The notes under the pieces were generated by a model that was given only the letters and a program-made list of their open reading frames with translations, searched no databases and had not been told where the DNA came from. The translations under genes and the position numbers were made by a program. DNA of 38,018 nt from a virus, in the IMG/VR virus record IMGVR_UViG_3300037789_000038, positions 1-38,018 of that record. One strand, written 5' to 3'. Of the stretch, positions 3,769 to 24,046 are shown piece after piece (the stretch's first letter is position 1; each line of letters opens with the position of its first letter).

Positions 3769-4701
3769 TTATGCCGCGCTTGGATAAACGCGCCGGAAGA
3801 TTTCTTGGACGCGGGCCTGTTTATCGTTGTTTTGCCAATAATCGTCGGAAGCCTGCAATTCCTTGGCCTCGGCCAACAATTCTTGGTTGTCCTTGCCCTG
3901 GATTGCGTGCAATTCCGGCGAAAATTTAGGCTCACCGGCGGCCGTCAAGATGGCCTCGATTGCCTCAACGCCCTGCGGCGATGGATTGGCGTTATCCGGC
4001 CAGATCAGCTTGGCATTATCCGCCCCAATCAAACCTTCCAGGCGCGACCGCGCAAAATCGAAGCGGTCTTTGCCATTCTCCCCGAGAGCCTTGTACGTTT
4101 CCGCCCTGGCCGCTTCCAGCGCTTCCGGCCCCGGCGTCATCGCCAATTCGGCTTCGGCATACGCCAGCACACCATCCATGAATTGTTCTTGGGAAAGCCC
4201 ATTGTCGAAAGCCGTATTCTTCCACCAGCCCAATAGCGGGTGCGTCTCATCAAACACGAAATACGACTTCCCTTCCTCGGGCTGGAAGTCATCGCCGGGC
4301 TTTTCCGACAACAGCACAATGCCGGTTTTTTCCGCCCGCTCGACCAGATTACCTTCCTCGGGCAACCCCACGGCGTAATCATCGACCTTGGCCGGTCGCT
4401 CTTTGAAGATTTCGGCCTTTACCGTGCCCTCGATTTCCGGGCGCAGCTTTTCCGTCAGTTCTTTGGTGATATCCGCTTCGATTTCCGAGCGAAGGCCGTC
4501 TTTGCCTTTTGAGAACCGCGCCCCCAGGTCCGTATGGGCCTTGGCCAAGTCCTCGACTTTAACTTCGCCTTTCTCGGCGTCCCAAAAATTCTCGGGAACA
4601 TATTCCGGGCGCGTTACCGCATCGCCGCCTTTGTCGCCATCACTTTGGCTTTCCGGGGCCGGCGCCCCCTCGTTCGATGTTTGGCCTTCCGCTTCTGCCA
4701 T
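3769..4701 (-). CDS. scaffolding protein
   Basis: About 310 aa, acidic and helical, located between the portal and capsid genes. The ATG at 4701 has AAGGAG 8 nt upstream; the track start at 4707 is a TTG. Confidence 0.65.
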   Translation of the reverse strand: MAEAEGQTSNEGAPAPESQSDGDKGGDAVTRPEYVPENFWDAEKGEVKVEDLAKAHTDLGARFSKGKDGLRSEIEADITKELTEKLRPEIEGTVKAEIFKERPAKVDDYAVGLPEEGNLVERAEKTGIVLLSEKPGDDFQPEEGKSYFVFDETHPLLGWWKNTAFDNGLSQEQFMDGVLAYAEAELAMTPGPEALEAARAETYKALGENGKDRFDFARSRLEGLIGADNAKLIWPDNANPSPQGVEAIEAILTAAGEPKFSPELHAIQGKDNQELLAEAKELQASDDYWQNNDKQARVQEIFRRVYPSAA

Positions 4702-9800: not shown

Positions 9801-10157
9801 ATGGCAACAGTAAGCTTTGAGCAAATGGCCGAGCGGATCGATTGCGGTTTCTTCGTGCGCGGAGAGGGCCGCCAGACTGACGCCGACCGCTTGGAGCGCT
9901 TGCTTTCCACGTTCGACTTTCAAGCCTTGCTAGAATGCGAAGAAGAAGGCGACGACCCGGACGAGGAAGAGCTGCACCGGCGTTTCGATGATGAAATCTT
10001 GCCGTTTGTTGTGGAGCAATACGAGCAAGACGGGCAGCCAGATTGGCCGGCGCGCCGCGAAGCGTTTTGCAACTGGATCGACAGCCTAAACAAAGACGGC
10101 GAAATATCCGACTGGATAGCGTCTAACATCGATCAACCGGCAAGCTGTGGAGACTGA
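9801..10157 (+). CDS. highly acidic early protein (118 aa)
   Basis: RBS GGAGGG. Contains the acidic run ECEEEGDDPDEEEL plus many further Asp/Glu residues. Confidence 0.6.
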   Translation: MATVSFEQMAERIDCGFFVRGEGRQTDADRLERLLSTFDFQALLECEEEGDDPDEEELHRRFDDEILPFVVEQYEQDGQPDWPARREAFCNWIDSLNKDGEISDWIASNIDQPASCGD

Positions 10158-10161
10158 CACC

Positions 10162-10410
10162 ATGAAACAATCATTCAAAGACATGGCAACGCGCCACGAT
10201 AACGCAATCATTTCGTTCGTCTCTTGTGTTGTCCGAGATATCGACTGCACCGAGGCAGACGCGCGCGCAATCCTGGGCTTGTACCTTGAGCACAAGATAG
10301 CCACCGTCGACCACCTGGGCGGAGGTGTGCGCGTTAAGCATGGCGCGTACCTTGAGCCCAACAGCCTGGAAAATGCCTTGCAGATGGTGCGTGAGACAGC
10401 CGCCGCATGA
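10162..10410 (+). CDS. hypothetical protein (82 aa)
   Basis: ATG at 10162 preceded by GGAG. The upstream ATG at 10147 would overlap the preceding gene. Confidence 0.5.
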   Translation: MKQSFKDMATRHDNAIISFVSCVVRDIDCTEADARAILGLYLEHKIATVDHLGGGVRVKHGAYLEPNSLENALQMVRETAAA

Positions 10411-10495
10411 CGCACCGCCGAGGGGCTTGGCAGAACGCCGAGCCTCTAACGGTGCGCCAATGGTGGCGGCCAGTTCAAGATAGGAGATTGGACAA

Positions 10496-10702
10496 ATGAC
10501 TTGGAACAATGAGCGCCGCGCAGAATGCGGAGGAAATGCCGTGCAGGCCGGAACGCCTGACTTCGAATACAACGACCCGCAAACAAACCTTGTGGACGCG
10601 CTAACAAATATCATGCACCACGCGGCCGCCGAATGTGACTTTGATCAGGCGTTACGGTCGGCCCGTATGCACTTCGAAGCAGAGCAGGAGGGCGACCAAT
10701 GA
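10496..10702 (+). CDS. hypothetical protein (68 aa)
   Basis: RBS TAGGAG 9 nt upstream of the ATG. Confidence 0.55.
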   Translation: MTWNNERRAECGGNAVQAGTPDFEYNDPQTNLVDALTNIMHHAAAECDFDQALRSARMHFEAEQEGDQ

Positions 10703-11004
10703 TTGCGCGCCACACGCCGGGCCCTTGGAATATCCGCCCAAAATGCGGAGGACAGATCGACAGCCCGAAAGGGCACCTTGCGACAGTTTACACGCACGGA
10801 GCAAATGACGCCGACTTTGACGAATGCACGGCGAACGCTCGATTAGTTGCCAGCGCGCCAGAACTCTTGCACGTATTGGAGCGCATTCTGTACGCCCACG
10901 ACACACACGGCACCGGCGCCGCAATGGGCGAGGCTATATTGTGCCGCGCTTACGCTGAAATGGCGCGGCACGCCATCGCCAAGGCGCGGGGGCTGGACAC
11001 ATGA
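10699..11004 (+). CDS. hypothetical protein of the HTPGPW ... NARLVASAPELL type
   Basis: ATGA overlap with the preceding gene. The motif pair recurs in many phage proteins of unknown function. Confidence 0.6.
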   Translation: MIARHTPGPWNIRPKCGGQIDSPKGHLATVYTHGANDADFDECTANARLVASAPELLHVLERILYAHDTHGTGAAMGEAILCRAYAEMARHAIAKARGLDT

Positions 11005-11267
11005 GCGAGCGCCCATTATGGCGGATCACTGCCTACAGCATGAAATACCGCAAGCGCATTCACTTGTTTACGTGGAGACGTTCGCCGGATGAAGGGATTG
11101 CGCGCGCGAAGCGTGACACGCTCGACTTTCCGCACCTTGGCGAATTGCGCGAATACAAGGCCGAACCCTTGGCCGTCGAATTGACAGACCAGGGCCAGCA
11201 GTACGTAATTCCGGGCGCAGAACGCGACCCGGAGCGCGGGCCCACACAAGGGAGCCTTTGGGAGTGA
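11001..11267 (+). CDS. hypothetical protein (88 aa)
   Basis: ATGA overlap with the preceding gene. Confidence 0.5.
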   Translation: MSERPLWRITAYSMKYRKRIHLFTWRRSPDEGIARAKRDTLDFPHLGELREYKAEPLAVELTDQGQQYVIPGAERDPERGPTQGSLWE

Positions 11268-11470
11268 ACGCAGAGCAGCTAGAACGCGCGGGGAGGGGAT
11301 TGTTTGGCGAGCGCTGGCAATCTCCCCTTGCGCGCGCGGTCGGAGTATCAATCCCGCAGATGCAACGATATGCAAAAGGCTCATATGAGATACCGCGCGC
11401 CGTGGAATTAGCGGTTAAGTATCTTTCCGCTCATCCAAAGATTGCGCAAGAGTACGGCCAGAAGCGATAA
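11258..11470 (+). CDS. small HTH DNA-binding protein (about 70 aa)
   Basis: HTH-like segment LARAVGVSIPQMQRYAKGSYEIPRAVELAV. Start is TTG at 11258 or GTG at 11264. It is the last gene of the early operon. Confidence 0.55.
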   Translation: MGVNAEQLERAGRGLFGERWQSPLARAVGVSIPQMQRYAKGSYEIPRAVELAVKYLSAHPKIAQEYGQKR

Positions 11471-14956: not shown

Positions 14957-15604
14957 ATGCAAAACAGATCAGACTTAAAGCACTGGTTACAATCGAGAAT
15001 GCGGCAAACAGGATGGTCTGCGGACCGTTGGGCGAAACAAGCAAAAATCGCCCCATCGACCGTCACGCGCTTTCTAAAGCACGACGATGCGCCGATGATG
15101 TCTCTAACCACGATCAATAAACTGACCGACGCACTGCCAGAAAATATCGACTATGGCGATGAAGATGATGACGCTATTTATTCGACACAACACGCAGCCG
15201 TGCCAAGATGGGACTATCGCGCCAGCGCCGGCCAAGGCATCCAAATACAAGAAGGCCCGGAAGAACGAGACTGTCTCCTTTTTCAGCGCGATTGGTTGGA
15301 GGGCATTGCCTCAAACGGCATAGACAAACTCTTTGCCTTAACAATCGAGGGCAACTCAATGGCGCCCACGCTCTTAGATGGCGATACGATCCTTGTCGAC
15401 CGCGCACAGACAAAGCCTCGCGGCGACGGAATTTACTTGCTCAACGTCGACGGTGAGTTGCTAGTAAAGCGCCTGCAGCGATCAATGGCCGATGGCACAT
15501 GGACGATTATCAGCGACAACCAGCTATATCCGAGTGAGCACGGCATAACGCCTGATTTGCTCGACATTGAAGGGCGCGTGCGATGGATCGGCCGTAAGAT
15601 TTAA
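14957..15604 (+). CDS. cI: CI-type repressor with LexA/S24 autopeptidase domain
   Basis: N-terminal HTH WSADRWAKQAKIAPSTVTRFL. C-terminal GNSMAPTL (Ser) and LLVKRLQ (Lys). Confidence 0.9.
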   Translation: MQNRSDLKHWLQSRMRQTGWSADRWAKQAKIAPSTVTRFLKHDDAPMMSLTTINKLTDALPENIDYGDEDDDAIYSTQHAAVPRWDYRASAGQGIQIQEGPEERDCLLFQRDWLEGIASNGIDKLFALTIEGNSMAPTLLDGDTILVDRAQTKPRGDGIYLLNVDGELLVKRLQRSMADGTWTIISDNQLYPSEHGITPDLLDIEGRVRWIGRKI

Positions 15605-16687: not shown

Positions 16688-16773
16688 CCAATTTCACTAT
16701 CAAATCTCTAATTGTCGGCGCTGCATTGCTCGCGCTTTTAATTGGAGCCTATTCATTGATGGAGGCGATATGA
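16684..16773 (+). CDS. 29-aa hydrophobic micropeptide (tentative)
   Basis: MTNFTIKSLIVGAALLALLIGAYSLMEAI, with ATGA overlaps at both ends. Confidence 0.3.
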   Translation: MTNFTIKSLIVGAALLALLIGAYSLMEAI

Positions 16774-17708
16774 TTTCTGAGCCAGGATTTTATGACATGC
16801 CAGAGGACGAGTATCACGCGGACCCGTGCCCGAAGCCTTCTTTGTCGTCATCCATTGCCAAAATGCTGGTGTCGATTAAGGACACGCCGCGCCACGCATG
16901 GCTACAGCACCCGCGCCTAAACCCAAACCATGACGCCGCACGCGCCTATAACAAGGCCCAGGCATTTGGCACAGTCTGTCACAAGCTGATGCTGCGGAAA
17001 GGTGGCGACGTAACGATCATCGAATATGACGATTTTCGGGGTAAAATAGCACAGAACGAGCGCGATGAAGCCGTGGCCGCCGGCAAGACGCCGATCCTAG
17101 CTGCAGACTACGCGAGCGCAGAGCAATTAGTGAAAGCCGGCCGGGCGCAACTACAGCGCCATGAGGACGCGGCAGACGCCTTTCAGACCGGCAAGCCTGA
17201 AATGACGGGGATATGGCGTGAAGGTGACGCCTGGGTACGTATGCGCCTGGATTGGCAACCTACCGGCGGAAATGTGCTCTACGATTACAAGACCGTCTCG
17301 GGCTCCGCTGCGGCCGACCAGTGGGTAAAGCAGGCGTTCGATCTTGGCAGCGATATTCAAGCGGCACTTTATAGTCGTGGGTGGCGCGCACTAACCGGAG
17401 TTGAAGGCGACGTTCACTTTCGCTTTGTCGTGCAGGAAATGGACCCGCCGTATGCTCTCAACGTCATTCAGTTTTCCGGCGCCGCGATGGCCTTGGCCGA
17501 AGCCAAAACCGCCGAGGCGATCCGCCGTTGGCAGTGGTGTATGAAGCACAACGCATGGCCGGGGCACCCGAAGCAGATATGCCATGTCGACGCACCAATT
17601 TGGCATGAGCGCGCCTGGGAAGATGTGAGCCTGCGGCGCGAAGTCGCAGACAAAGACCTGATGGAATTAGCAAACGATTGGCAAGCGCCATTGGAGGCAG
17701 CAGAGTGA
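16770..17708 (+). CDS. PD-(D/E)XK recombination exonuclease (DUF3799/RecE-like)
   Basis: GFYDMPEDEYHADPCPKPSLSSS at the N-terminus, then MRLDW and LYDYKT as the D...D-x-K motif. Confidence 0.75.
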   Translation: MISEPGFYDMPEDEYHADPCPKPSLSSSIAKMLVSIKDTPRHAWLQHPRLNPNHDAARAYNKAQAFGTVCHKLMLRKGGDVTIIEYDDFRGKIAQNERDEAVAAGKTPILAADYASAEQLVKAGRAQLQRHEDAADAFQTGKPEMTGIWREGDAWVRMRLDWQPTGGNVLYDYKTVSGSAAADQWVKQAFDLGSDIQAALYSRGWRALTGVEGDVHFRFVVQEMDPPYALNVIQFSGAAMALAEAKTAEAIRRWQWCMKHNAWPGHPKQICHVDAPIWHERAWEDVSLRREVADKDLMELANDWQAPLEAAE

Positions 17709-18781: not shown

Positions 18782-19113
18782 GTGCATGGCCGATCACGCT
18801 GCAAGAAGCCGCCGAACGCCTACACGCCTCCGAGCGATGGCTACGCGACCACATAAAGACCCACCCTTGCGGCAGAAAGGCAGGCAGGCGCATCATCTTC
18901 ACCGAGCATGATTTCAACCACCTGTTAGGAACGCTGCAATGTCTCTCAAACTCACAAAGCGCGGTGACACCTACTACGTCACCGGCACAATCGGCAACCA
19001 ACGCATCCGAGAAAGTGCGAAAACTTCTGATCGACGGAAAGCAGAAGGCTTGCTTGCGAAGAGAACACAAGAGGCCTGGAACCGTCATATCTATGGCGAG
19101 CGGGAAACGGTGA
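18778..19113 (+). CDS. xis: excisionase-like HTH_17 protein; C-terminal extent uncertain
   Basis: ITLQEAAERLHASERWLRDHI...GRRIIFTEHDFNHLL. ATGA overlap with the upstream gene. The last 175 nt overlap int in another frame. Confidence 0.6.
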   Translation: MSAWPITLQEAAERLHASERWLRDHIKTHPCGRKAGRRIIFTEHDFNHLLGTLQCLSNSQSAVTPTTSPAQSATNASEKVRKLLIDGKQKACLRREHKRPGTVISMASGKR

Positions 19114-19967
19114 CACTAGCCGAGGCCGCGCTGATTTACTGCAGTGGCCGCGAGTTTTCCCCTAGTTATTATGATTGCCTGCTAAAGATTACGGATCGAC
19201 TTGGCGCCCGCCCATTGAGCAGCATCGATCAGCGCACGATGGATGACTATATCGCCACCTACTACCCGTCAGCAAAGCCTGCGACGATCCAGAAGAACGC
19301 CATCACCCCAATTACTGCGATTATGACCGCCGGCGCCAAGCGTGGCTGGTGCGACGTGCCGAAGTTTGAGCGCCCGAAGCAATCTCGCGGCCGCCTGCGC
19401 TATCTCTCGCGGGATGAGGCTGACCGGCTGATTTCTGAGTGCGCCGATCACATTAAGCCGCTTGTTACCTTTCTCATTCACACCGGCGCCCGCCTTGGCG
19501 AAGCGCTTGACCTTACCTGGGATGATGTTGACCTGTCCCGCCGCTTTGTCACGTTTCACGAAACCAAGAACGAAGAAAGCCGCAGCATCCCCCTCAACGG
19601 CACGGCATTTATGGCACTGGCGAACCTACCCGAGCGCGAAGGCGTAGTGTTCCGCAATGACAAGGGCGATCCTTGGTCACGCAAGACCAGCAACCCCATG
19701 AAAACGGGATACAGCGCCGCCTGCCGGCGAGCCGGGATCAAGAATTTTACAGTACACGACTTGCGGCACACGTTTGCCTCATGGCTTGCGCTGGAGAATA
19801 AAAGCCTGCGAACGATTGCGGAATTGCTTGGACATAAAGACCTGAAAATGGTCATGCGATATGCCCACCTGTCGCCCGGGCACCTTAAAGAAGCCGTGAG
19901 TGCAATTGACACACCAGCGACACAGCGCGCCGGCGATCAAGTGCAATCAATTGAAGGAAAACAATAA
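18939..19967 (+). CDS. int: tyrosine integrase
   Basis: C-terminal HDLRHTFASWLA...LLGH...RYAHL catalytic pattern, and an N-terminus MSLKLTKRGDTYYVTG typical of phage integrases. Confidence 0.95.
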   Translation: MSLKLTKRGDTYYVTGTIGNQRIRESAKTSDRRKAEGLLAKRTQEAWNRHIYGERETVTLAEAALIYCSGREFSPSYYDCLLKITDRLGARPLSSIDQRTMDDYIATYYPSAKPATIQKNAITPITAIMTAGAKRGWCDVPKFERPKQSRGRLRYLSRDEADRLISECADHIKPLVTFLIHTGARLGEALDLTWDDVDLSRRFVTFHETKNEESRSIPLNGTAFMALANLPEREGVVFRNDKGDPWSRKTSNPMKTGYSAACRRAGIKNFTVHDLRHTFASWLALENKSLRTIAELLGHKDLKMVMRYAHLSPGHLKEAVSAIDTPATQRAGDQVQSIEGKQ

Positions 19968-19971
19968 AAAA

Positions 19972-20031
19972 TGGCAGAGCGCGTAATTGGTAAGGGGGAG
20001 GTCGTGAGTTCAAATCTCACCGGCAGCACCA
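19972..20031 (+). other. attP region carrying the 3' part of a tRNA-Thr(GGU) gene (not a functional tRNA)
   Basis: 19987..20031 reads as anticodon loop TTGGTAA, 3' anticodon stem GGGGG, variable AGGTC, T-arm GTGAG-TTCAAAT-CTCAC, acceptor CGGCAGC, then A-CCA. The 5' anticodon stem (CGTAA) cannot pair and no 5' acceptor strand is present. Confidence 0.8.
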
Positions 20032-20241: not shown

Positions 20242-20433
20242 ATGGCTGAGTGTGAATTTTGTAAGGGCAGCGGCAAGCTGCACCTGAAAACCAAAGGGTG
20301 GGATTATATGCCCTGCCTTGAGTGCAACGGCACTGGCATCCAGCATTGTTGCGAAGGTCTGCAAGCCGATCCAGTTGTGGATGCTGAGTGGCCCGACAAC
20401 CCCGCAGAAATCTCGACGTTTGGGAGGAAGTGA
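20242..20433 (+). CDS. DnaJ-type zinc-finger miniprotein (63 aa)
   Basis: Two CxxCxGxG motifs, CEFCKGSG and CLECNGTG. RBS AGGAG. Confidence 0.65.
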   Translation: MAECEFCKGSGKLHLKTKGWDYMPCLECNGTGIQHCCEGLQADPVVDAEWPDNPAEISTFGRK

Positions 20434-20654: not shown

Positions 20655-20984
20655 ATGAGTATTGAAAATCTGACGATCAAAGAAGTACGAGAAATTGCCG
20701 CAATGCTTGGCGGTAAGTCACAAATAGAACAGCACCCGTGTGTTGGCAAAAAGGTTCTAGCGATCTTGCCGGGGCGGTTCATTTACATGGGTACTCTTGA
20801 ACAATCCGGCGAACACTACGTCCTAAGAGACGCGAAGAACATTCGCTACTGGAAAGAACGCGATAACGGTCTTGGCGGGTTGGCTGCAAAAGGGCCGATC
20901 TCTGGCGATAAGATCGATGACTGCCCGCCCGTTTGGTTCCGCGCCGATGAGGAAATCGCGCTCATGGAAGTGACCTATGAGTAA
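20655..20984 (+). CDS. conserved phage protein of unknown function (109 aa)
   Basis: RBS AAAGGAG. The layout IKEVREIAAMLGG...HPCVGKKV...G.L...GEHYVLRDAKNIRYW matches a widespread uncharacterised phage family (from memory). Confidence 0.6.
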   Translation: MSIENLTIKEVREIAAMLGGKSQIEQHPCVGKKVLAILPGRFIYMGTLEQSGEHYVLRDAKNIRYWKERDNGLGGLAAKGPISGDKIDDCPPVWFRADEEIALMEVTYE

Positions 20985-21270
20985 AGGCTACGGCTACGGC
21001 TACGGCTCCGGCTACGGCTCCGGCGACGGCGACGGCTACGGCGACGGCTCCGGCTCCGGCGACGGCTCCGGCTACGGCTCCGGCTACGGCTACGGCTCCG
21101 GCTACGGCTACGGCTCCGGCTACGGCTACGGCTCCGGCTACGGCTACGGCTCCGGCGACGGCTACGGCGACGGCGACGGCTCCGGCTCCGGCGACGGCTC
21201 CGGCTACGGCTACGGCTACGGCTCCGGCTACGGCTACGGCTGCATTATATGGGGCGAAAAACATGGTTGA
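20977..21270 (+). CDS. Gly-X dipeptide-repeat protein, (G-[Y/S/D])x42 then GC (97 aa)
   Basis: MSK, then 43 Gly-X units, then IIWGEKHG. Translationally coupled to both neighbouring genes. Confidence 0.6.
   Translation: MSKGYGYGYGSGYGSGDGDGYGDGSGSGDGSGYGSGYGYGSGYGYGSGYGYGSGYGYGSGDGYGDGDGSGSGDGSGYGYGYGSGYGYGCIIWGEKHG
20986..21243 (+). repeat. 258-bp hexamer array GGC-(TAC/TCC/GAC)
   Basis: 43 consecutive GGCNNC units with only one codon used per amino acid. Four perfect 18-bp GGCTACGGCTACGGCTCC units form the centre. Confidence 0.95.
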
Positions 21271-21493
21271 CGCACACCTCGTCTCAGACCTGATCCACAG
21301 CGTGAAGGTCAAAGGATTCTACGACCTTACAAATCAGGAAGTGGACACGCTGATCGCAGAGATCGAGCGGCTGCGGGCGGCGTTGGCCGACATACAACGT
21401 GAGGCATGCGCACTCGGCCCTGAATGGGCCAGTGATACAGCGTTTAATGCGCTTCAACCGGCGTCCCCCAAAGCTAACGGAGAGAGCGAATGA
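21263..21493 (+). CDS. hypothetical coiled-coil protein (76 aa)
   Basis: Start overlaps the upstream stop (ATGGTTGA). Confidence 0.55.
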   Translation: MVDAHLVSDLIHSVKVKGFYDLTNQEVDTLIAEIERLRAALADIQREACALGPEWASDTAFNALQPASPKANGESE

Positions 21494-23035: not shown

Positions 23036-24046
23036 ATGGCGGTAAAGATCATCGAGGGCGATTGTCGGGAGCGGCTTCAAGAGATTGAGGCCGGTTCCGT
23101 GCATTGCTGCGTGTCGTCGCCGCCGTACTTCGGTTTGCGGGATTACGGCATAGACGGCCAGATCGGGCTTGAGCCGACGCCTGACGAGTTTATCGCGGGC
23201 CTTGTCGACGTGTTCAGCGAGGTTCGTCGGGTTCTGCGCGATGACGGCACCTTGTGGCTCAATCTCGGTGACAGCTACTGGACCGCCAAGGGCAAGAGCT
23301 GCGGCGTTGATCCGAAGCAGAGAGCGCGGCGCGGCTGGGAGCCCCCGCAAGATCGGCCGGCGCCAATGGGAATTAAGGGCAAAGACCTGATCGGCATACC
23401 TTGGATGGCGGCTTTCGCCCTTCGCGCGGACGGCTGGTTTTTGCGCTCGCATATCGTATGGCACAAGCCGAACCCTATGCCGGAGAGTGTCGCGGACCGT
23501 CCGACAAGCGCCCATGAAAGCCTGTTCCTGCTGGCGAAGTCGTCACGGTACTACTATGACGGTGACGCGATCCGCGAGGCCGAGGCGGTGCCGGATTGGG
23601 ATGACGGTTCGCGAGTGTTCGGCGGTGCCAATAAGCACGGTGCGAACGTGAAGCATGGCGACCGGACAACGGGCCGGGTTGCTGAGAAACGCAAGCGGGG
23701 CGTGCCGCCTCGACACTCTCAATATGAAAGCAGCGATCAATCGGGCCTTGATACGGTCCCGCGTGGCGCCGGTCGCAATAAGCGAAACGTATGGACAGTC
23801 GCGACACGGCCTTTTGCCGAGGCCCATTTCGCGACGTTTCCGCCTGGCCTGATCGAGCCGTGTATTCTTGCCGGCTGCCCGAAAGGCGGCACGGTGCTAG
23901 ACCCGTTCGGCGGTGCCGGCACAACCGGCTTAGTTGCTGATCGCCTTGGCCGCGATGCGTTGTTGATCGAATTGAACCCTGAATATGCCGCAATGGCCCG
24001 CCGGCGGATTGCCAGCGATGCGCCGTTGCTGGCCGATGTTTCATAA
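23036..24046 (+). CDS. orphan DNA methyltransferase (N6_N4_Mtase family, beta class; SPPY suggests N4-cytosine)
   Basis: Motif IV CCVSSPPYFGLRDYG at the N-terminus and motif I VLDPFGGAGTTGLVA near the C-terminus. No nuclease partner nearby. Confidence 0.9.
   Translation: MAVKIIEGDCRERLQEIEAGSVHCCVSSPPYFGLRDYGIDGQIGLEPTPDEFIAGLVDVFSEVRRVLRDDGTLWLNLGDSYWTAKGKSCGVDPKQRARRGWEPPQDRPAPMGIKGKDLIGIPWMAAFALRADGWFLRSHIVWHKPNPMPESVADRPTSAHESLFLLAKSSRYYYDGDAIREAEAVPDWDDGSRVFGGANKHGANVKHGDRTTGRVAEKRKRGVPPRHSQYESSDQSGLDTVPRGAGRNKRNVWTVATRPFAEAHFATFPPGLIEPCILAGCPKGGTVLDPFGGAGTTGLVADRLGRDALLIELNPEYAAMARRRIASDAPLLADVS

Follow-up and report, generated by a model that had tools for sequence, protein, structure and literature searches.

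The 97-residue Gly-X repeat ORF of this phage is a real gene, and it is the second half of a widespread but undescribed two-gene phage cassette in which a small DUF6948 protein with a predicted Sm-like barrel fold is followed by a Gly-Tyr/Ser/Asp polymer that is predicted to be disordered. The window analysed (the whole 38,018-nucleotide stretch of IMG/VR record IMGVR_UViG_3300037789_000038) is a ~38-kb temperate phage genome. A scan of viral contigs that did not depend on the Gly codon found 145 such arrays in 112 loci, and 84 of the 106 array ORFs with upstream DNA sit directly behind, or are fused to, a DUF6948 gene. The role of the pair proposed below, an acidic multivalent tail with tyrosine contact points working with the DUF6948 protein early in infection, is inferred.

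The Gly-X ORF and its repeat structure

To determine whether the ORF described in the initial annotation is accurate, the sequence, its translation and its codon usage were re-examined. The results showed that every detail of the observation was reproduced. The features of the locus are as follows.

20655..20984 (+), upstream partner gene (109 aa), a divergent DUF6948-family small beta-barrel protein with a predicted Sm/LSm-like fold
20966..20970 (+), Shine-Dalgarno-like GGAAG, 6 nt upstream of the ATG of the array ORF and embedded in the conserved 'ME' codons of the upstream gene
20977..20984 (+), 8-nt start/stop overlap ATGAGTAA between the upstream gene and the array ORF, consistent with translational coupling
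20977..21270 (+), Gly-X array ORF (97 aa), MSK + (G-[YSDC])x43 + IIWGEKHG
20986..21243 (+), hexanucleotide coding repeat of 258 bp, 43 units of GGC-[T/G][A/C/G]C
21082..21153 (+), central perfect 18-bp x4 block (GYGYGS x4), the part that varies in length
21241..21270 (+), conserved C-terminal tail CIIWGEKHG plus stop
21263..21493 (+), downstream 76-aa ORF, overlapping the array ORF by 8 nt (ATGGTTGA)

At the X position there are 20 Tyr (46.5%), 14 Ser (32.6%), 8 Asp (18.6%) and 1 Cys (2.3%), the Cys being in the last unit. All 43 array Gly codons are GGC, all Tyr TAC, all Ser TCC and all Asp GAC, and hexamer positions 3 and 6 never vary, whereas positions 4-5 differ from GGCTAC in 23 of 43 units. 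Tandem Repeats Finder reported a period of 6, 42.7 copies and a score of 358, by far the strongest repeat in the window. The product is acidic and has no signal peptide. The unit string, YYYSYS, DDYDSSDS, YS(YYS)x4, DYDDSSDS, YYYSYYC, has the modular layout described. However, the impression of near-symmetry in the initial annotation was not supported as mirror symmetry, as only 12 of 42 units match their mirror (shuffle test, p about 0.84), and the repeat of the D/S block at a 21-22-unit offset is marginal (p about 0.05).

The array is conserved in the + frame

Five of the six reading frames are open across the array, so that openness alone says nothing about which frame is used. To determine which frame is conserved, a check already named in the initial annotation, the locus was compared with six relatives of this phage lineage, whose DUF6948 proteins are 67-80% identical to that of the window. 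The results showed that these relatives keep the ATG and its overlap, the Gly-X frame and a tail of the form C-Φ-Φ-W-G-E/D-K-H-x, whereas the order of Y, S and D is not conserved. The 8-nt overlap (ATGAGTAA, ATGAATAA or ATGAGTAG) was found in the relatives L131, L132-L134, L260, L262 and L263 (locus labels of this study), and GGAAG, GGAGG or GGAAT occurs at the place of the Shine-Dalgarno-like motif. The tails of the relatives read CLFWGEKHS, CVLGEKHA, CLLWGDKHS and CRLWGEKHG, and their third-position changes (GGC/GGA/GGT, CAT/CAC, TGC/TGT) are synonymous in the + frame. The same ORF had been called on the + strand by another source's gene caller in a second assembly (L006, from a different JGI sample; 85 aa). 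These data settle the + frame as the one that matters.

Two alternative readings of the coding potential were rejected. An antisense ORF (20962..21312, AVAVAG...) has a conserved 'MFFAP' start, but this is simply the antisense of the conserved GEKH, and the substitutions are synonymous in the + frame and non-conservative in the antisense frame. A programmed frameshift fusing the DUF6948 gene to the array was considered, but the ATG is conserved in all six lineage relatives, so independent or re-initiated translation is the simpler reading.

Array length differs between assemblies

To determine whether the length of the array varies, assemblies with identical flanks were compared. L006 has 0 mismatches to the window in its 1093-bp and 403-bp flanks but contains only x2 of the central block, giving 37 units, a difference of 36 bp. 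L133 and L134 likewise have identical flanks and differ by 24 bp. Both differences are in frame, although they could reflect assembly collapse at perfect higher-order repeats rather than true polymorphism. Short-k assemblies end inside the array (L005 at window position 21015, and L135). The possibility that the array itself is a mis-assembled or chimeric low-complexity stretch is nevertheless extremely remote, because the same array, apart from the central copy number, was recovered in an independent sample with identical flanks, arrays are identical in independent assemblies of relatives (L132 = L133 and L260 = L261), and more than 100 viral contigs and complete genomes of cultured phages carry such arrays in the same gene position. 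A search of IMG/VR and the JGI metagenome collection with an exact flank sequence for further assemblies of this phage gave no match.

The array follows a DUF6948 gene in a two-gene cassette

To determine whether the ORF is an orphan, the neighbours of arrays in viral contigs were examined. Of 126 array ORFs, 82 have a DUF6948 ORF directly upstream on the same strand and 2 are fused to it, while a further 20 lack upstream DNA. All nine INPHARED phages examined that carry DUF6948, including RcapNL, NK-7, PhiPLPE and Pectobacterium phages, have an adjacent or fused array; the genes are annotated as 'hypothetical' or 'fibroin-like', or are left unannotated. The pair is gp46/gp47 in RcapNL, WCD42787/WCD42788 in Ymer and XCO36015/XCO36016 in NK-7. 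As a control, none of 59 loci with such arrays found by the same scan of bacterial genomes contains any DUF6948 ORF. Arrays were also found fused in frame to DUF7666 and to other domains. The downstream 76-aa ORF is not a conserved part of the cassette: downstream genes differ between relatives, and no conserved third gene appeared in 102 loci, where the only cluster consisted of extra DUF6948 copies.

The window protein encoded upstream of the array falls formally below the Pfam gathering threshold for DUF6948 (PF22253; 20.7 bits against a 27-bit cut-off, E 4.6e-4). Homology is nevertheless supported by hhalign of its subfamily against canonical DUF6948 genes found upstream of arrays (96.1% probability, E 3.4e-9) and by Foldseek, whose top BFVD hits are 'DUF6948 domain-containing protein' at E about 1e-6. 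Close relatives of the protein (P0104 and P0115 in our set) carry precomputed PF22253 hits. The AlphaFold2 model (pLDDT 88.5) has a helix at 8-17, then strands at 33-37, 43-51, 54-57 and 61-65, with further elements after that, and it was compared with the Sm/LSm/Hfq superfamily, which has an N-terminal helix followed by a strongly bent five-stranded beta-barrel. The top 50 Foldseek PDB hits are all Sm/LSm proteins, but with E-values of only 2e-3 to 9e-3 and target-normalised TM-scores of 0.36-0.67, and profile searches against PDB sequences found no match to any solved Sm or Hfq protein. The Sm-like assignment rests on predicted fold alone, and small beta-barrels bind many kinds of ligand.

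The cassette lies in the same + strand gene block as exonuclease VIII, AAA_24, the integrase and a methyltransferase, and in relatives it lies near RecE, YqaJ, Erf or SSB genes. A DNA search of INPHARED found no close phage relative, with only the methyltransferase matching, and a profile of the lineage found no relative in 185,579 species genomes.

Searches of PHROGs, Pfam, NCBIfam and PADLOC gave nothing meaningful for the array ORF, the only Pfam hit being compositional (TrAA12, below threshold). A phmmer search against 1.84 billion cluster representatives returned 334 hits, dominated by compositional matches. Literature searches on DUF6948, glycine-tyrosine repeats in phage, 'fibroin heavy chain-like' proteins and literal array peptides gave nothing relevant, in line with the statement in the initial annotation that no characterised phage function was known for such a protein.

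Composition, predicted disorder and codon usage of the arrays

Family-wide, the arrays, defined as having at least ~8 units, have a median of 33 units, and the X position holds Y 41%, D 22%, S 22% and N 9%, every other residue being at most 1%, including single-nucleotide neighbours such as Ala, Thr and His. This pattern points to selection on the protein. AlphaFold2 with a 38-sequence alignment gave the window product a mean pLDDT of 34.4, a pTM of 0.18 and no secondary structure, so that the chain is predicted to be disordered.

The single-codon spelling is not special to this ORF: 110 of 145 arrays use a single Gly codon, and GGC is the majority codon in 123. GGC makes up 85% of array Gly codons in loci of 35-45% GC, where it is only 10-30% of background Gly codons. 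The strong preference for GGC in AT-rich phages and the lack of synonymous variation inside arrays suggest some constraint at the nucleotide level that a protein-based model does not explain. To determine whether avoidance of RNA structure explains GGC usage, the array RNA was folded. The window array folds worse than all 200 shuffles (z = +5.3), but the GGC+NNT spelling used in AT-rich phages is the most structured of the eight spellings tested, implying that no consistent RNA structure is selected, and this explanation was rejected.

The possibility was also considered that the GGCNNC array itself is the functional unit, for example a recombination hot spot, a protein-binding iteron array or a G-rich structure, with an incidental reading frame. 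The invariant hexamer positions, the single-codon spelling, the five open frames and the neighbouring recombination genes are in line with this. However, arrays written entirely with GGT, GGA or GGG exist and still encode Gly-X, the start codon, its overlap and the tail are conserved, arrays are fused in frame to protein domains, the restriction of X to Y/S/D/N has no evident DNA-level rule, and Rfam gave no hit at gathering threshold over the whole window. A DNA-only reading is now unlikely. Mutagenesis of the NNC codons by a diversity-generating retroelement was rejected, because none of the 30 window ORFs scanned against PHROGs or Pfam, which include the large ones, matched a reverse transcriptase, no second copy of the array exists in the window, and the variation spectrum is wrong, as such an element would give adenine-specific variation and the variable positions hold only T/G and A/C/G with no residual AAC.

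Comparison with known Gly- and Tyr-rich systems

The initial annotation compared the array to FUS-type low-complexity domains. The resemblance to the [G/S]Y[G/S] prion-like domains of FUS/EWS/TAF15 and hnRNPs, which have few charged or aliphatic residues, is partial. The composition is dominated by Gly, Ser and Tyr, all 20 Tyr are flanked by Gly in [G/S]Y[G/S]-type triplets, the chain is predicted to be disordered, and composition rather than sequence is conserved across relatives. The array differs in its strict alternation of Gly at every second residue, the absence of Gln and Pro, the 8 Asp (about 19% here, 22% across the family) that make the chain clearly acidic, its length of only 97 aa with no attached RNA-binding domain, its perfect hexanucleotide repeat, and its phage origin and pairing with a DUF6948 gene.

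Sm/LSm/Hfq cores with disordered tails (the yeast Lsm4 Q/N-rich tail, SmB/D RG tails, the Hfq acidic C-terminal domain) and bacterial SSB with its Gly-rich linker offer a second comparison, in that a small beta-barrel of predicted Sm-like fold is combined with a low-complexity segment, in one chain in a few relatives and elsewhere as separate genes with overlapping start and stop codons, in several phages beside recombination or SSB genes. However, no sequence similarity to Sm, Hfq or SSB was found, Sm1/Sm2 motifs are not evident, the tail is a separate gene in most phages, and its Gly-Tyr/Ser/Asp chemistry differs from RG, Q/N or SSB-type linkers.

The same degenerate DNA scan of bacterial genomes mainly recovered (GY)8-13 tails at the C-termini of proteins with the Wzz + GNVR + AAA_31 architecture, the tyrosine clusters of BY-kinases (Wzc/Etk/CapB type), so that (GY)n is a natural tyrosine-kinase substrate motif in bacteria. 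The array might imitate these clusters as a decoy that soaks up or redirects host tyrosine kinase or phosphatase activity, for example to change capsule production. This is improbable, as the kinase tails are short, nearly pure GY and attached to the kinase, whereas the phage arrays are 3-5 times longer, always mixed with S/D/N, free-standing or fused to non-kinase domains, and tied to DUF6948, which has no known link to kinases and is absent from the 59 bacterial loci. The window ORF itself has no other domain.

Silk-fibroin (Gly-X)n repeats and the EBNA1 Gly-Ala repeat of Epstein-Barr virus also show strict Gly alternation over tens of residues, and the EBNA1 repeat is likewise viral and written with a narrow set of codons. 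In those repeats X is Ala or Ser, whereas here it is Tyr, Ser or Asp and Ala is essentially absent (0.6% family-wide). Fibroin is secreted and forms beta-sheet crystallites, and the EBNA1 repeat is an internal segment of a large protein, whereas the array is predicted to lack order, has no signal peptide and is encoded in the early region. A related possibility is a precursor of a modified or cross-linked peptide or material, either a RiPP-like substrate (for example for radical-SAM cyclophane formation on Tyr-Gly-X motifs) or a silk-like or polyglycine-II fibrous protein with di-tyrosine cross-links. Repeated Y-G-[D/S/Y] triplets resemble aromatic-X-X cross-linking motifs, a radical-SAM-like gene follows the array gene in one lineage (L132-L134), one GenBank record names the product 'fibroin heavy chain-like', and Gly-rich polyproline-II bundles exist in phage adhesins and have been proposed for high Gly-Tyr keratin-associated proteins (PMC8409303). 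However, no modifying enzyme is conserved next to the cassette in the 102 downstream ORFs or adjacent to it in the window, there is no leader or core organisation, the gene is not in the structural gene block, and AlphaFold2 predicts no ordered bundle, making this reading very unlikely.

Finally, as in coding microsatellites and contingency-type tandem repeats, near-perfect short-unit tandem DNA lies inside an ORF, copy number differs between otherwise identical genomes as assembled, and assemblies break at the repeat. The unit here is 6 bp, so every change stays in frame and can adjust length but cannot switch the gene on or off.

Discussion

The observation in the initial annotation holds in full apart from the near-symmetry. 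Its interpretation was supported only in part: the phage gene, the + frame, the [G/S]Y[G/S] pattern and a repeat length that differs between assemblies were borne out, but the ORF is the downstream half of a conserved pair rather than a stand-alone curiosity, one codon per residue is a family-wide property, and the condensate or hydrogel formation, Tyr cross-linking and DNA-level role that it left open remain conjectural. What the analysis shows is an acidic polymer of 43 Gly-X dipeptides, predicted to be disordered, with Tyr at about every fourth residue and Ser/Asp in between, encoded by the second gene of a conserved cassette whose two genes overlap in most phages and form a single polypeptide in a few, and whose relatives conserve the composition and Gly spacing but not the order of units. 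Expression, self-association, ring formation, nucleic-acid binding and contact between the two proteins are, by contrast, matters of inference, as is everything that follows on mechanism. We are highly confident that this is a translated disordered protein belonging to the cassette, but the mode of action proposed here is doubtful, and the explanation as a whole is tentative.

In this view, the array would act as a flexible multivalent tail for the DUF6948 protein, in trans here and in cis in the fused relatives, with Tyr residues as contact points ('stickers'), Gly and Ser as spacers and Asp keeping the chain soluble, an arrangement seen in LSm/Hfq cores with disordered tails, in the Gly-rich linker of SSB and in FUS-type low-complexity domains. 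The pair would build a higher-order, condensate-like assembly or a multivalent binding platform, although about 19% Asp and a net charge near -7 would work against simple Tyr-driven phase separation. Its target may be RNA, ssDNA or a host protein. As the cassette sits in the early rightward operon beside the recombination genes and integrase, it would act early in infection or after induction.

Alternatively, the Asp/Tyr-rich chain might imitate nucleic acid and act as a competitor rather than a self-associating scaffold, occupying the binding surface of the Sm-like partner, as the acidic C-terminal domain of Hfq does, or that of a host nucleic-acid-binding or defence protein. The arrays are strongly acidic and almost free of basic residues (35 K+R against 922 D+E at 4138 X positions), are usually paired with or fused to a predicted Sm-like barrel, and sit among early, recombination and host-takeover type genes. 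However, known DNA mimics are folded proteins with ordered arrays of charge, Tyr at 41% of X positions is not needed for charge mimicry, and PADLOC, which covers defence rather than anti-defence genes, has no match. This reading, for which binding is purely hypothetical, is unlikely.

A more far-reaching reading, also unlikely on present evidence, is that the pair is a widespread, previously unrecognised phage system in which an Sm-like oligomer and a FUS-like low-complexity polymer together build a membrane-less assembly, or a multivalent trap, in the infected bacterium. That would make it a viral, prokaryotic counterpart of eukaryotic granule modules built from an LSm core and a low-complexity tail, with material properties tuned quickly by in-frame slippage of the hexanucleotide repeat.

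The findings have practical consequences for annotation, as these genes break short-read assemblies, are sometimes left unannotated (PhiPLPE) and are absent from PHROGs, Pfam, NCBIfam and PADLOC, so that a common phage gene pair is currently invisible. The near-universal single-codon spelling, and the GGC preference that is independent of genome GC content, raise the separate question of how coding repeats are generated and maintained in phage genomes. The partner is defined, natural fused and split versions exist, length variants occur naturally, and several cultured phages that could be mutated carry the pair (Rhodobacter RcapNL, Ralstonia NK-7, Pectobacterium Ymer/Sabo and Iodobacter PhiPLPE). 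If the pair does what its anatomy suggests, it would be a compact, genetically tractable example of a tyrosine/glycine low-complexity polymer used by bacterial viruses.

Sequence of the Gly-X array ORF

To verify the structure of the Gly-X array ORF described in the initial annotation, the ORF, its codons and its flanks were re-examined. The result showed that the observation was exact. The ORF encodes 97 residues, namely MSK, 43 Gly-X units and IIWGEKHG, in which X is Tyr 20 times, Ser 14 times, Asp 8 times and Cys once, in the last unit. Within the array every Gly is GGC, every Tyr TAC, every Ser TCC and every Asp GAC, so that the array is a pure GGCNNC repeat with 76% G+C in a window of 56% G+C. 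Tandem Repeats Finder gave period 6, 42.7 copies and a score of 358, far above any other repeat in the window. Both 8-nt overlaps with the neighbouring ORFs (ATGAGTAA and ATGGTTGA) are present, and a GGAAG lies 6 nt before the ATG. The unit string is YYYSYS/DDYDSSDS/YS(YYS)4/DYDDSSDS/YYYSYYC, which matches the modules described previously. However, the near-symmetry claimed for this layout was not better than chance when tested as mirror symmetry (p about 0.84), and the repeat of the D/S block at a 21-22-unit offset was only marginal (p about 0.05). In addition, five of the six frames are open across the array, so the frame cannot be judged from openness.

Genomic setting

The window is a ~38-kb temperate phage genome. 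The minus strand carries a replication initiator, small and large terminase, a head-tail adaptor, the major head protein and tail genes. The + strand carries a block containing an AAA_24 protein, several small ORFs and the following features:

14957..15604 (+), CI-like repressor
16770..17708 (+), exonuclease VIII
18939..19967 (+), tyrosine integrase
about 19900..20031 (+), 3' fragment of tmRNA
20242-20433 (+), 63-aa ORF with two CxxC pairs
20977..21270 (+), array ORF
20986..21243 (+), GGCNNC array of 258 bp
23036..24046 (+), N6/N4 DNA methyltransferase

The tmRNA fragment directly after the integrase matches Rfam RF00023 model positions 236-374 (E 1e-6, 21 bits, below the gathering score), and ARAGORN found no complete tmRNA or tRNA. 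This is what one expects of an attachment site in ssrA, and the fragment looks like the phage attachment site, which would mean integration into the host ssrA gene. The two CxxC pairs of the 63-aa ORF (CEFCKGSG...CLECNGTG) resemble a DnaJ-type zinc-finger motif, although the ORF has only weak Pfam hits (GRXCR1-2_C and DUF5351, both below threshold). The array ORF therefore lies in the early block that holds the recombination genes and the integrase, not among the structural genes.

Independent assemblies of the array

To examine the possibility that the array is an artefact, other assemblies of the same phage were compared. The upstream 109-aa protein was found with identical sequence on two other contigs. 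The first contig, L006, which comes from a different JGI sample, has no mismatch in 1093 bp upstream and 403 bp downstream, but its array has 37 units instead of 43 because the central perfect GYGYGS block is x2 instead of x4. The gene caller of that source called the 85-aa + strand ORF. The second contig, L005, a Logan assembly, is identical over 6361 bp and then stops 30 nt into the array, at window position 21015. A further case came from a relative, in which contigs L133 and L134 have no mismatch in 1681 + 1581 bp of flanks, yet their arrays differ by one 24-bp block (80 versus 72 aa). In independent assemblies of relatives, L132 equals L133 and L260 equals L261. So the arrays can be assembled reproducibly, and the differences lie at perfect higher-order repeats and are always in frame, being either true length polymorphism or collapse of perfect repeats during assembly.

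Conservation of the reading frame

To determine whether the + frame is conserved, relatives of the upstream protein were collected. This protein has 23 relatives at 61-80% identity, and six of their loci (L131, L132-134, L260, L262 and L263) were fetched. The result showed that in all six the next ORF starts 8 nt before the upstream stop (ATGAGTAA, ATGAATAA or ATGAGTAG) and encodes a short N-terminus followed by 30-48 Gly-X units, written almost entirely with GGC, TAC, TCC and GAC. In all five loci where the contig reaches the end of the ORF (L262 stops inside the array), it finishes with a conserved tail: CIIWGEKHG, CLFWGEKHS, CVLGEKHA, CLLWGDKHS or CRLWGEKHG. In the tail, the third codon positions of the + frame vary synonymously (GGC/GGA/GGT, CAT/CAC, TGC/TGT) and the two hydrophobic positions change conservatively, whereas the same changes are non-conservative when read in the antisense frame. 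The order of Y, S and D is not conserved between relatives. Relatives that keep the repeat but break the + frame, which had been named beforehand as the refuting case, were not observed. The + frame, which the initial annotation favoured, was thus supported. A rival explanation, against which these data also speak, is that the array is an element at the DNA or RNA level.

In one lineage, a 302-aa gene with a weak radical-SAM Pfam hit directly follows the array gene (L132 3599-4507, L133 1981-2889, L134 1923-2831), but it is not conserved in other lineages. A modified or cross-linked peptide is a further rival explanation for the array product.

A large family of array proteins

To determine whether similar arrays occur elsewhere, a protein search with the array was performed and gave 87 hits at E <= 1e-3. 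Their sequences showed the same (G-[Y/S/D])n module fused to different small domains, namely DUF6948 (proteins P0052 and P0087), DUF7666 (metagenome proteins P0040, P0044, P0070 and P0088), an N-terminal 'TRKHALKAVLMGAC'-type domain and two kinds of C-terminal domain. In the DUF7666 proteins, Gly-[Y/S/D/N] arrays are fused on either side to this domain, which is another uncharacterised one.

To avoid any bias towards a particular Gly codon, IMG/VR was scanned with a degenerate DNA pattern that fixes only GGN and TAY. The scan gave at least 120 contigs, and the 120 contigs analysed hold 145 arrays of at least 8 units in 112 loci. Across 125 array ORFs, X is Y 41%, D 22%, S 22% and N 9%, and every other residue is at most 1%. 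The median length is 33 units (quartiles 27 and 39, maximum 58). There are 35 K+R against 922 D+E, and an acidic decoy or autoinhibitory tail is one of the rival explanations for the array. Of 126 array ORFs, 86 are 'minimal' like that of the window, with tails shorter than 40 residues. Some phages carry two to five array genes in tandem, the copies of which share N- and C-terminal tails but differ in array length (viral loci L052 1681-2971 and L013 1476-2572; also L107, L039, L073, L105 and L118).

Codon spelling

Of the 145 arrays, 110 use one Gly codon throughout. The majority codon is GGC in 123 arrays, GGG in 13, GGT in 6 and GGA in 3. In loci of 35-45% G+C, 85% of array Gly codons are GGC (e.g. 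L009, L012, L014, L026 and L036), while GGC makes up only 10-30% of Gly codons in other long ORFs of the same loci. Yet a few arrays are written wholly with GGT, GGA or GGG (e.g. L046, L069 and L079). The third base of the X codons is uniform within an array, being T in AT-rich phages and C in GC-rich ones, and Ser is TCY in about 96% of cases. One codon per residue is therefore a property of the whole family, and it fits growth and turnover by slippage or unequal exchange of a few unit types. Y, S, D and N are all single-base neighbours of TAY, but so are His, Cys and Phe, which are rare. In the window, hexamer positions 3 and 6 never vary, while positions 4-5 differ from GGCTAC in 23 of 43 units, a pattern that independent point mutation at neutral synonymous sites would not produce. 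Avoidance of RNA structure was examined as a cause of the GGC preference and was ruled out, as it does not account for it.

Association with DUF6948

In the first three loci fetched for array proteins, a DUF6948 gene lay directly upstream (L008, L009/L010) or was fused to the array (L007). In L008, two identical DUF6948 genes (296-583 and 1169-1456) flank the array gene (574-1044), which may be a real direct repeat or an assembly duplication. In L009/L010, an IS605 OrfB / TnpB-type gene (10139-11329; Pfam OrfB_IS605 and Cas12f1-like_TNB) lies inside the phage early region, 1.6 kb downstream of the cassette. To determine how general the association is, a local profile of these proteins was built, and it found 94 DUF6948-like ORFs in 91 loci.

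Table. Position of DUF6948 relative to the 126 array ORFs
DUF6948 ORF directly upstream, same strand (gap <= 50 nt, mostly overlaps of 4-25 nt): 82
Fused to DUF6948: 2
DUF6948 further upstream: 11
Less than 400 bp of upstream DNA available: 20
At least 400 bp upstream, none found: 11

As a control, the same DNA pattern was applied to bacterial genomes. The result showed 59 loci with such arrays, and none of the 120 fetched loci (L140-L259, bacterial genome contigs) contains a DUF6948 ORF. Runs of 8-13 Gly-Tyr dipeptides end many Wzz + GNVR + AAA_31 proteins (BY-kinase-like capsule or EPS co-polymerases) in these contigs, especially in Bacteroidota (e.g. L156, L158, L174, L204, L209 and L213). 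The scan thus showed that (GY)8-13 tails are typical of Wzz+GNVR+AAA_31 proteins, which bears on the rival explanation that the phage array is a tyrosine-cluster decoy for BY-kinases. No other gene family was found to be conserved downstream of the phage arrays. All nine INPHARED phages examined that have a DUF6948 homologue carry an adjacent or fused array.

Table. INPHARED phages with a DUF6948 homologue and an array
Rhodobacter phage RcapNL: gp47 (DUF6948) + gp46 (array)
Ralstonia phage NK-7: array annotated 'fibroin heavy chain-like protein'
Pectobacterium phages Ymer and Sabo: adjacent array
Iodobacter phage PhiPLPE: array ORF not annotated
Vibrio phage IKEMa6-1: adjacent array
Chlorobiaceae phage CV-1-33: adjacent array
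Two uncultured phage genomes: in one, the array is the N-terminal part of the DUF6948 protein

In PhiPLPE (NC_011142, about 45994-46264; about 1190-1460 of the fetched locus L137), the 272-bp 'intergenic' gap between gp84 (a DUF6948 protein) and gp83 holds the unannotated ORF, which reads MSRLVNNKN, then about 35 Gly-[D/S/Y] units, and overlaps the end of gp84.

Predicted structures of the upstream protein and the array protein

To determine whether the upstream ORF of the window encodes a DUF6948 protein, sequence and structure comparisons were carried out. The Pfam hit is below threshold (20.7 bits, E 4.6e-4). However, the profile of its subfamily, built without any canonical member, matched a profile of canonical array-associated DUF6948 proteins at 96.1% probability, E 3.4e-9, and its AlphaFold2 model (pLDDT 88.5) hit 'DUF6948 domain-containing protein' models in BFVD at E about 1e-6, supporting homology. 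Against solved structures, the top 50 Foldseek hits were all Sm/LSm proteins, although with E-values of only 2e-3 to 9e-3 and target-normalised TM-scores from 0.36 to 0.67, and profile searches against PDB sequences found nothing. We therefore call it a divergent DUF6948 with a predicted Sm-like small beta-barrel fold, and do not claim membership of the Sm family.

For the array protein, AlphaFold2 with a 38-sequence alignment gave mean pLDDT 34.4, pTM 0.18 and no secondary structure. The N-terminus is MSK, so there is no signal peptide. The protein has 8 Asp, 1 Glu, 2 Lys and 1 His.

Interpretation

In the literature searched, no paper mentions DUF6948, these peptide strings or Gly-Tyr repeat proteins of phages. 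PHROGs, NCBIfam and PADLOC have no family for the array protein, and PHROGs has only an unknown-function family for canonical DUF6948. The sequences exist in public records, but the pair has not been described. Low-complexity Gly/Tyr proteins and coding microsatellites are both known, whereas the strict dipeptide form, the phage setting, the fixed partner and the codon behaviour are new here.

Taken together, these results show, from sequence and prediction, that the array ORF is a translated-frame gene, that it is conserved as the downstream half of a two-gene phage cassette, that its product is predicted to be disordered and is selected for composition rather than order, and that it is encoded by a repeat whose length differs in frame between assemblies. 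We hold the statements on the gene and the cassette with high confidence. The mode of action, in contrast, is inferred and remains tentative. The closest working analogies are LSm/Hfq cores with disordered tails, the Gly-rich linker of SSB and FUS-type low-complexity domains. By this inference, the array is a multivalent tail for the DUF6948 protein, acting in trans in most phages and in cis in the fused relatives, in which Tyr would provide the contact points, Gly and Ser the spacing, and Asp would limit aggregation, and the pair would act early, near the recombination functions.
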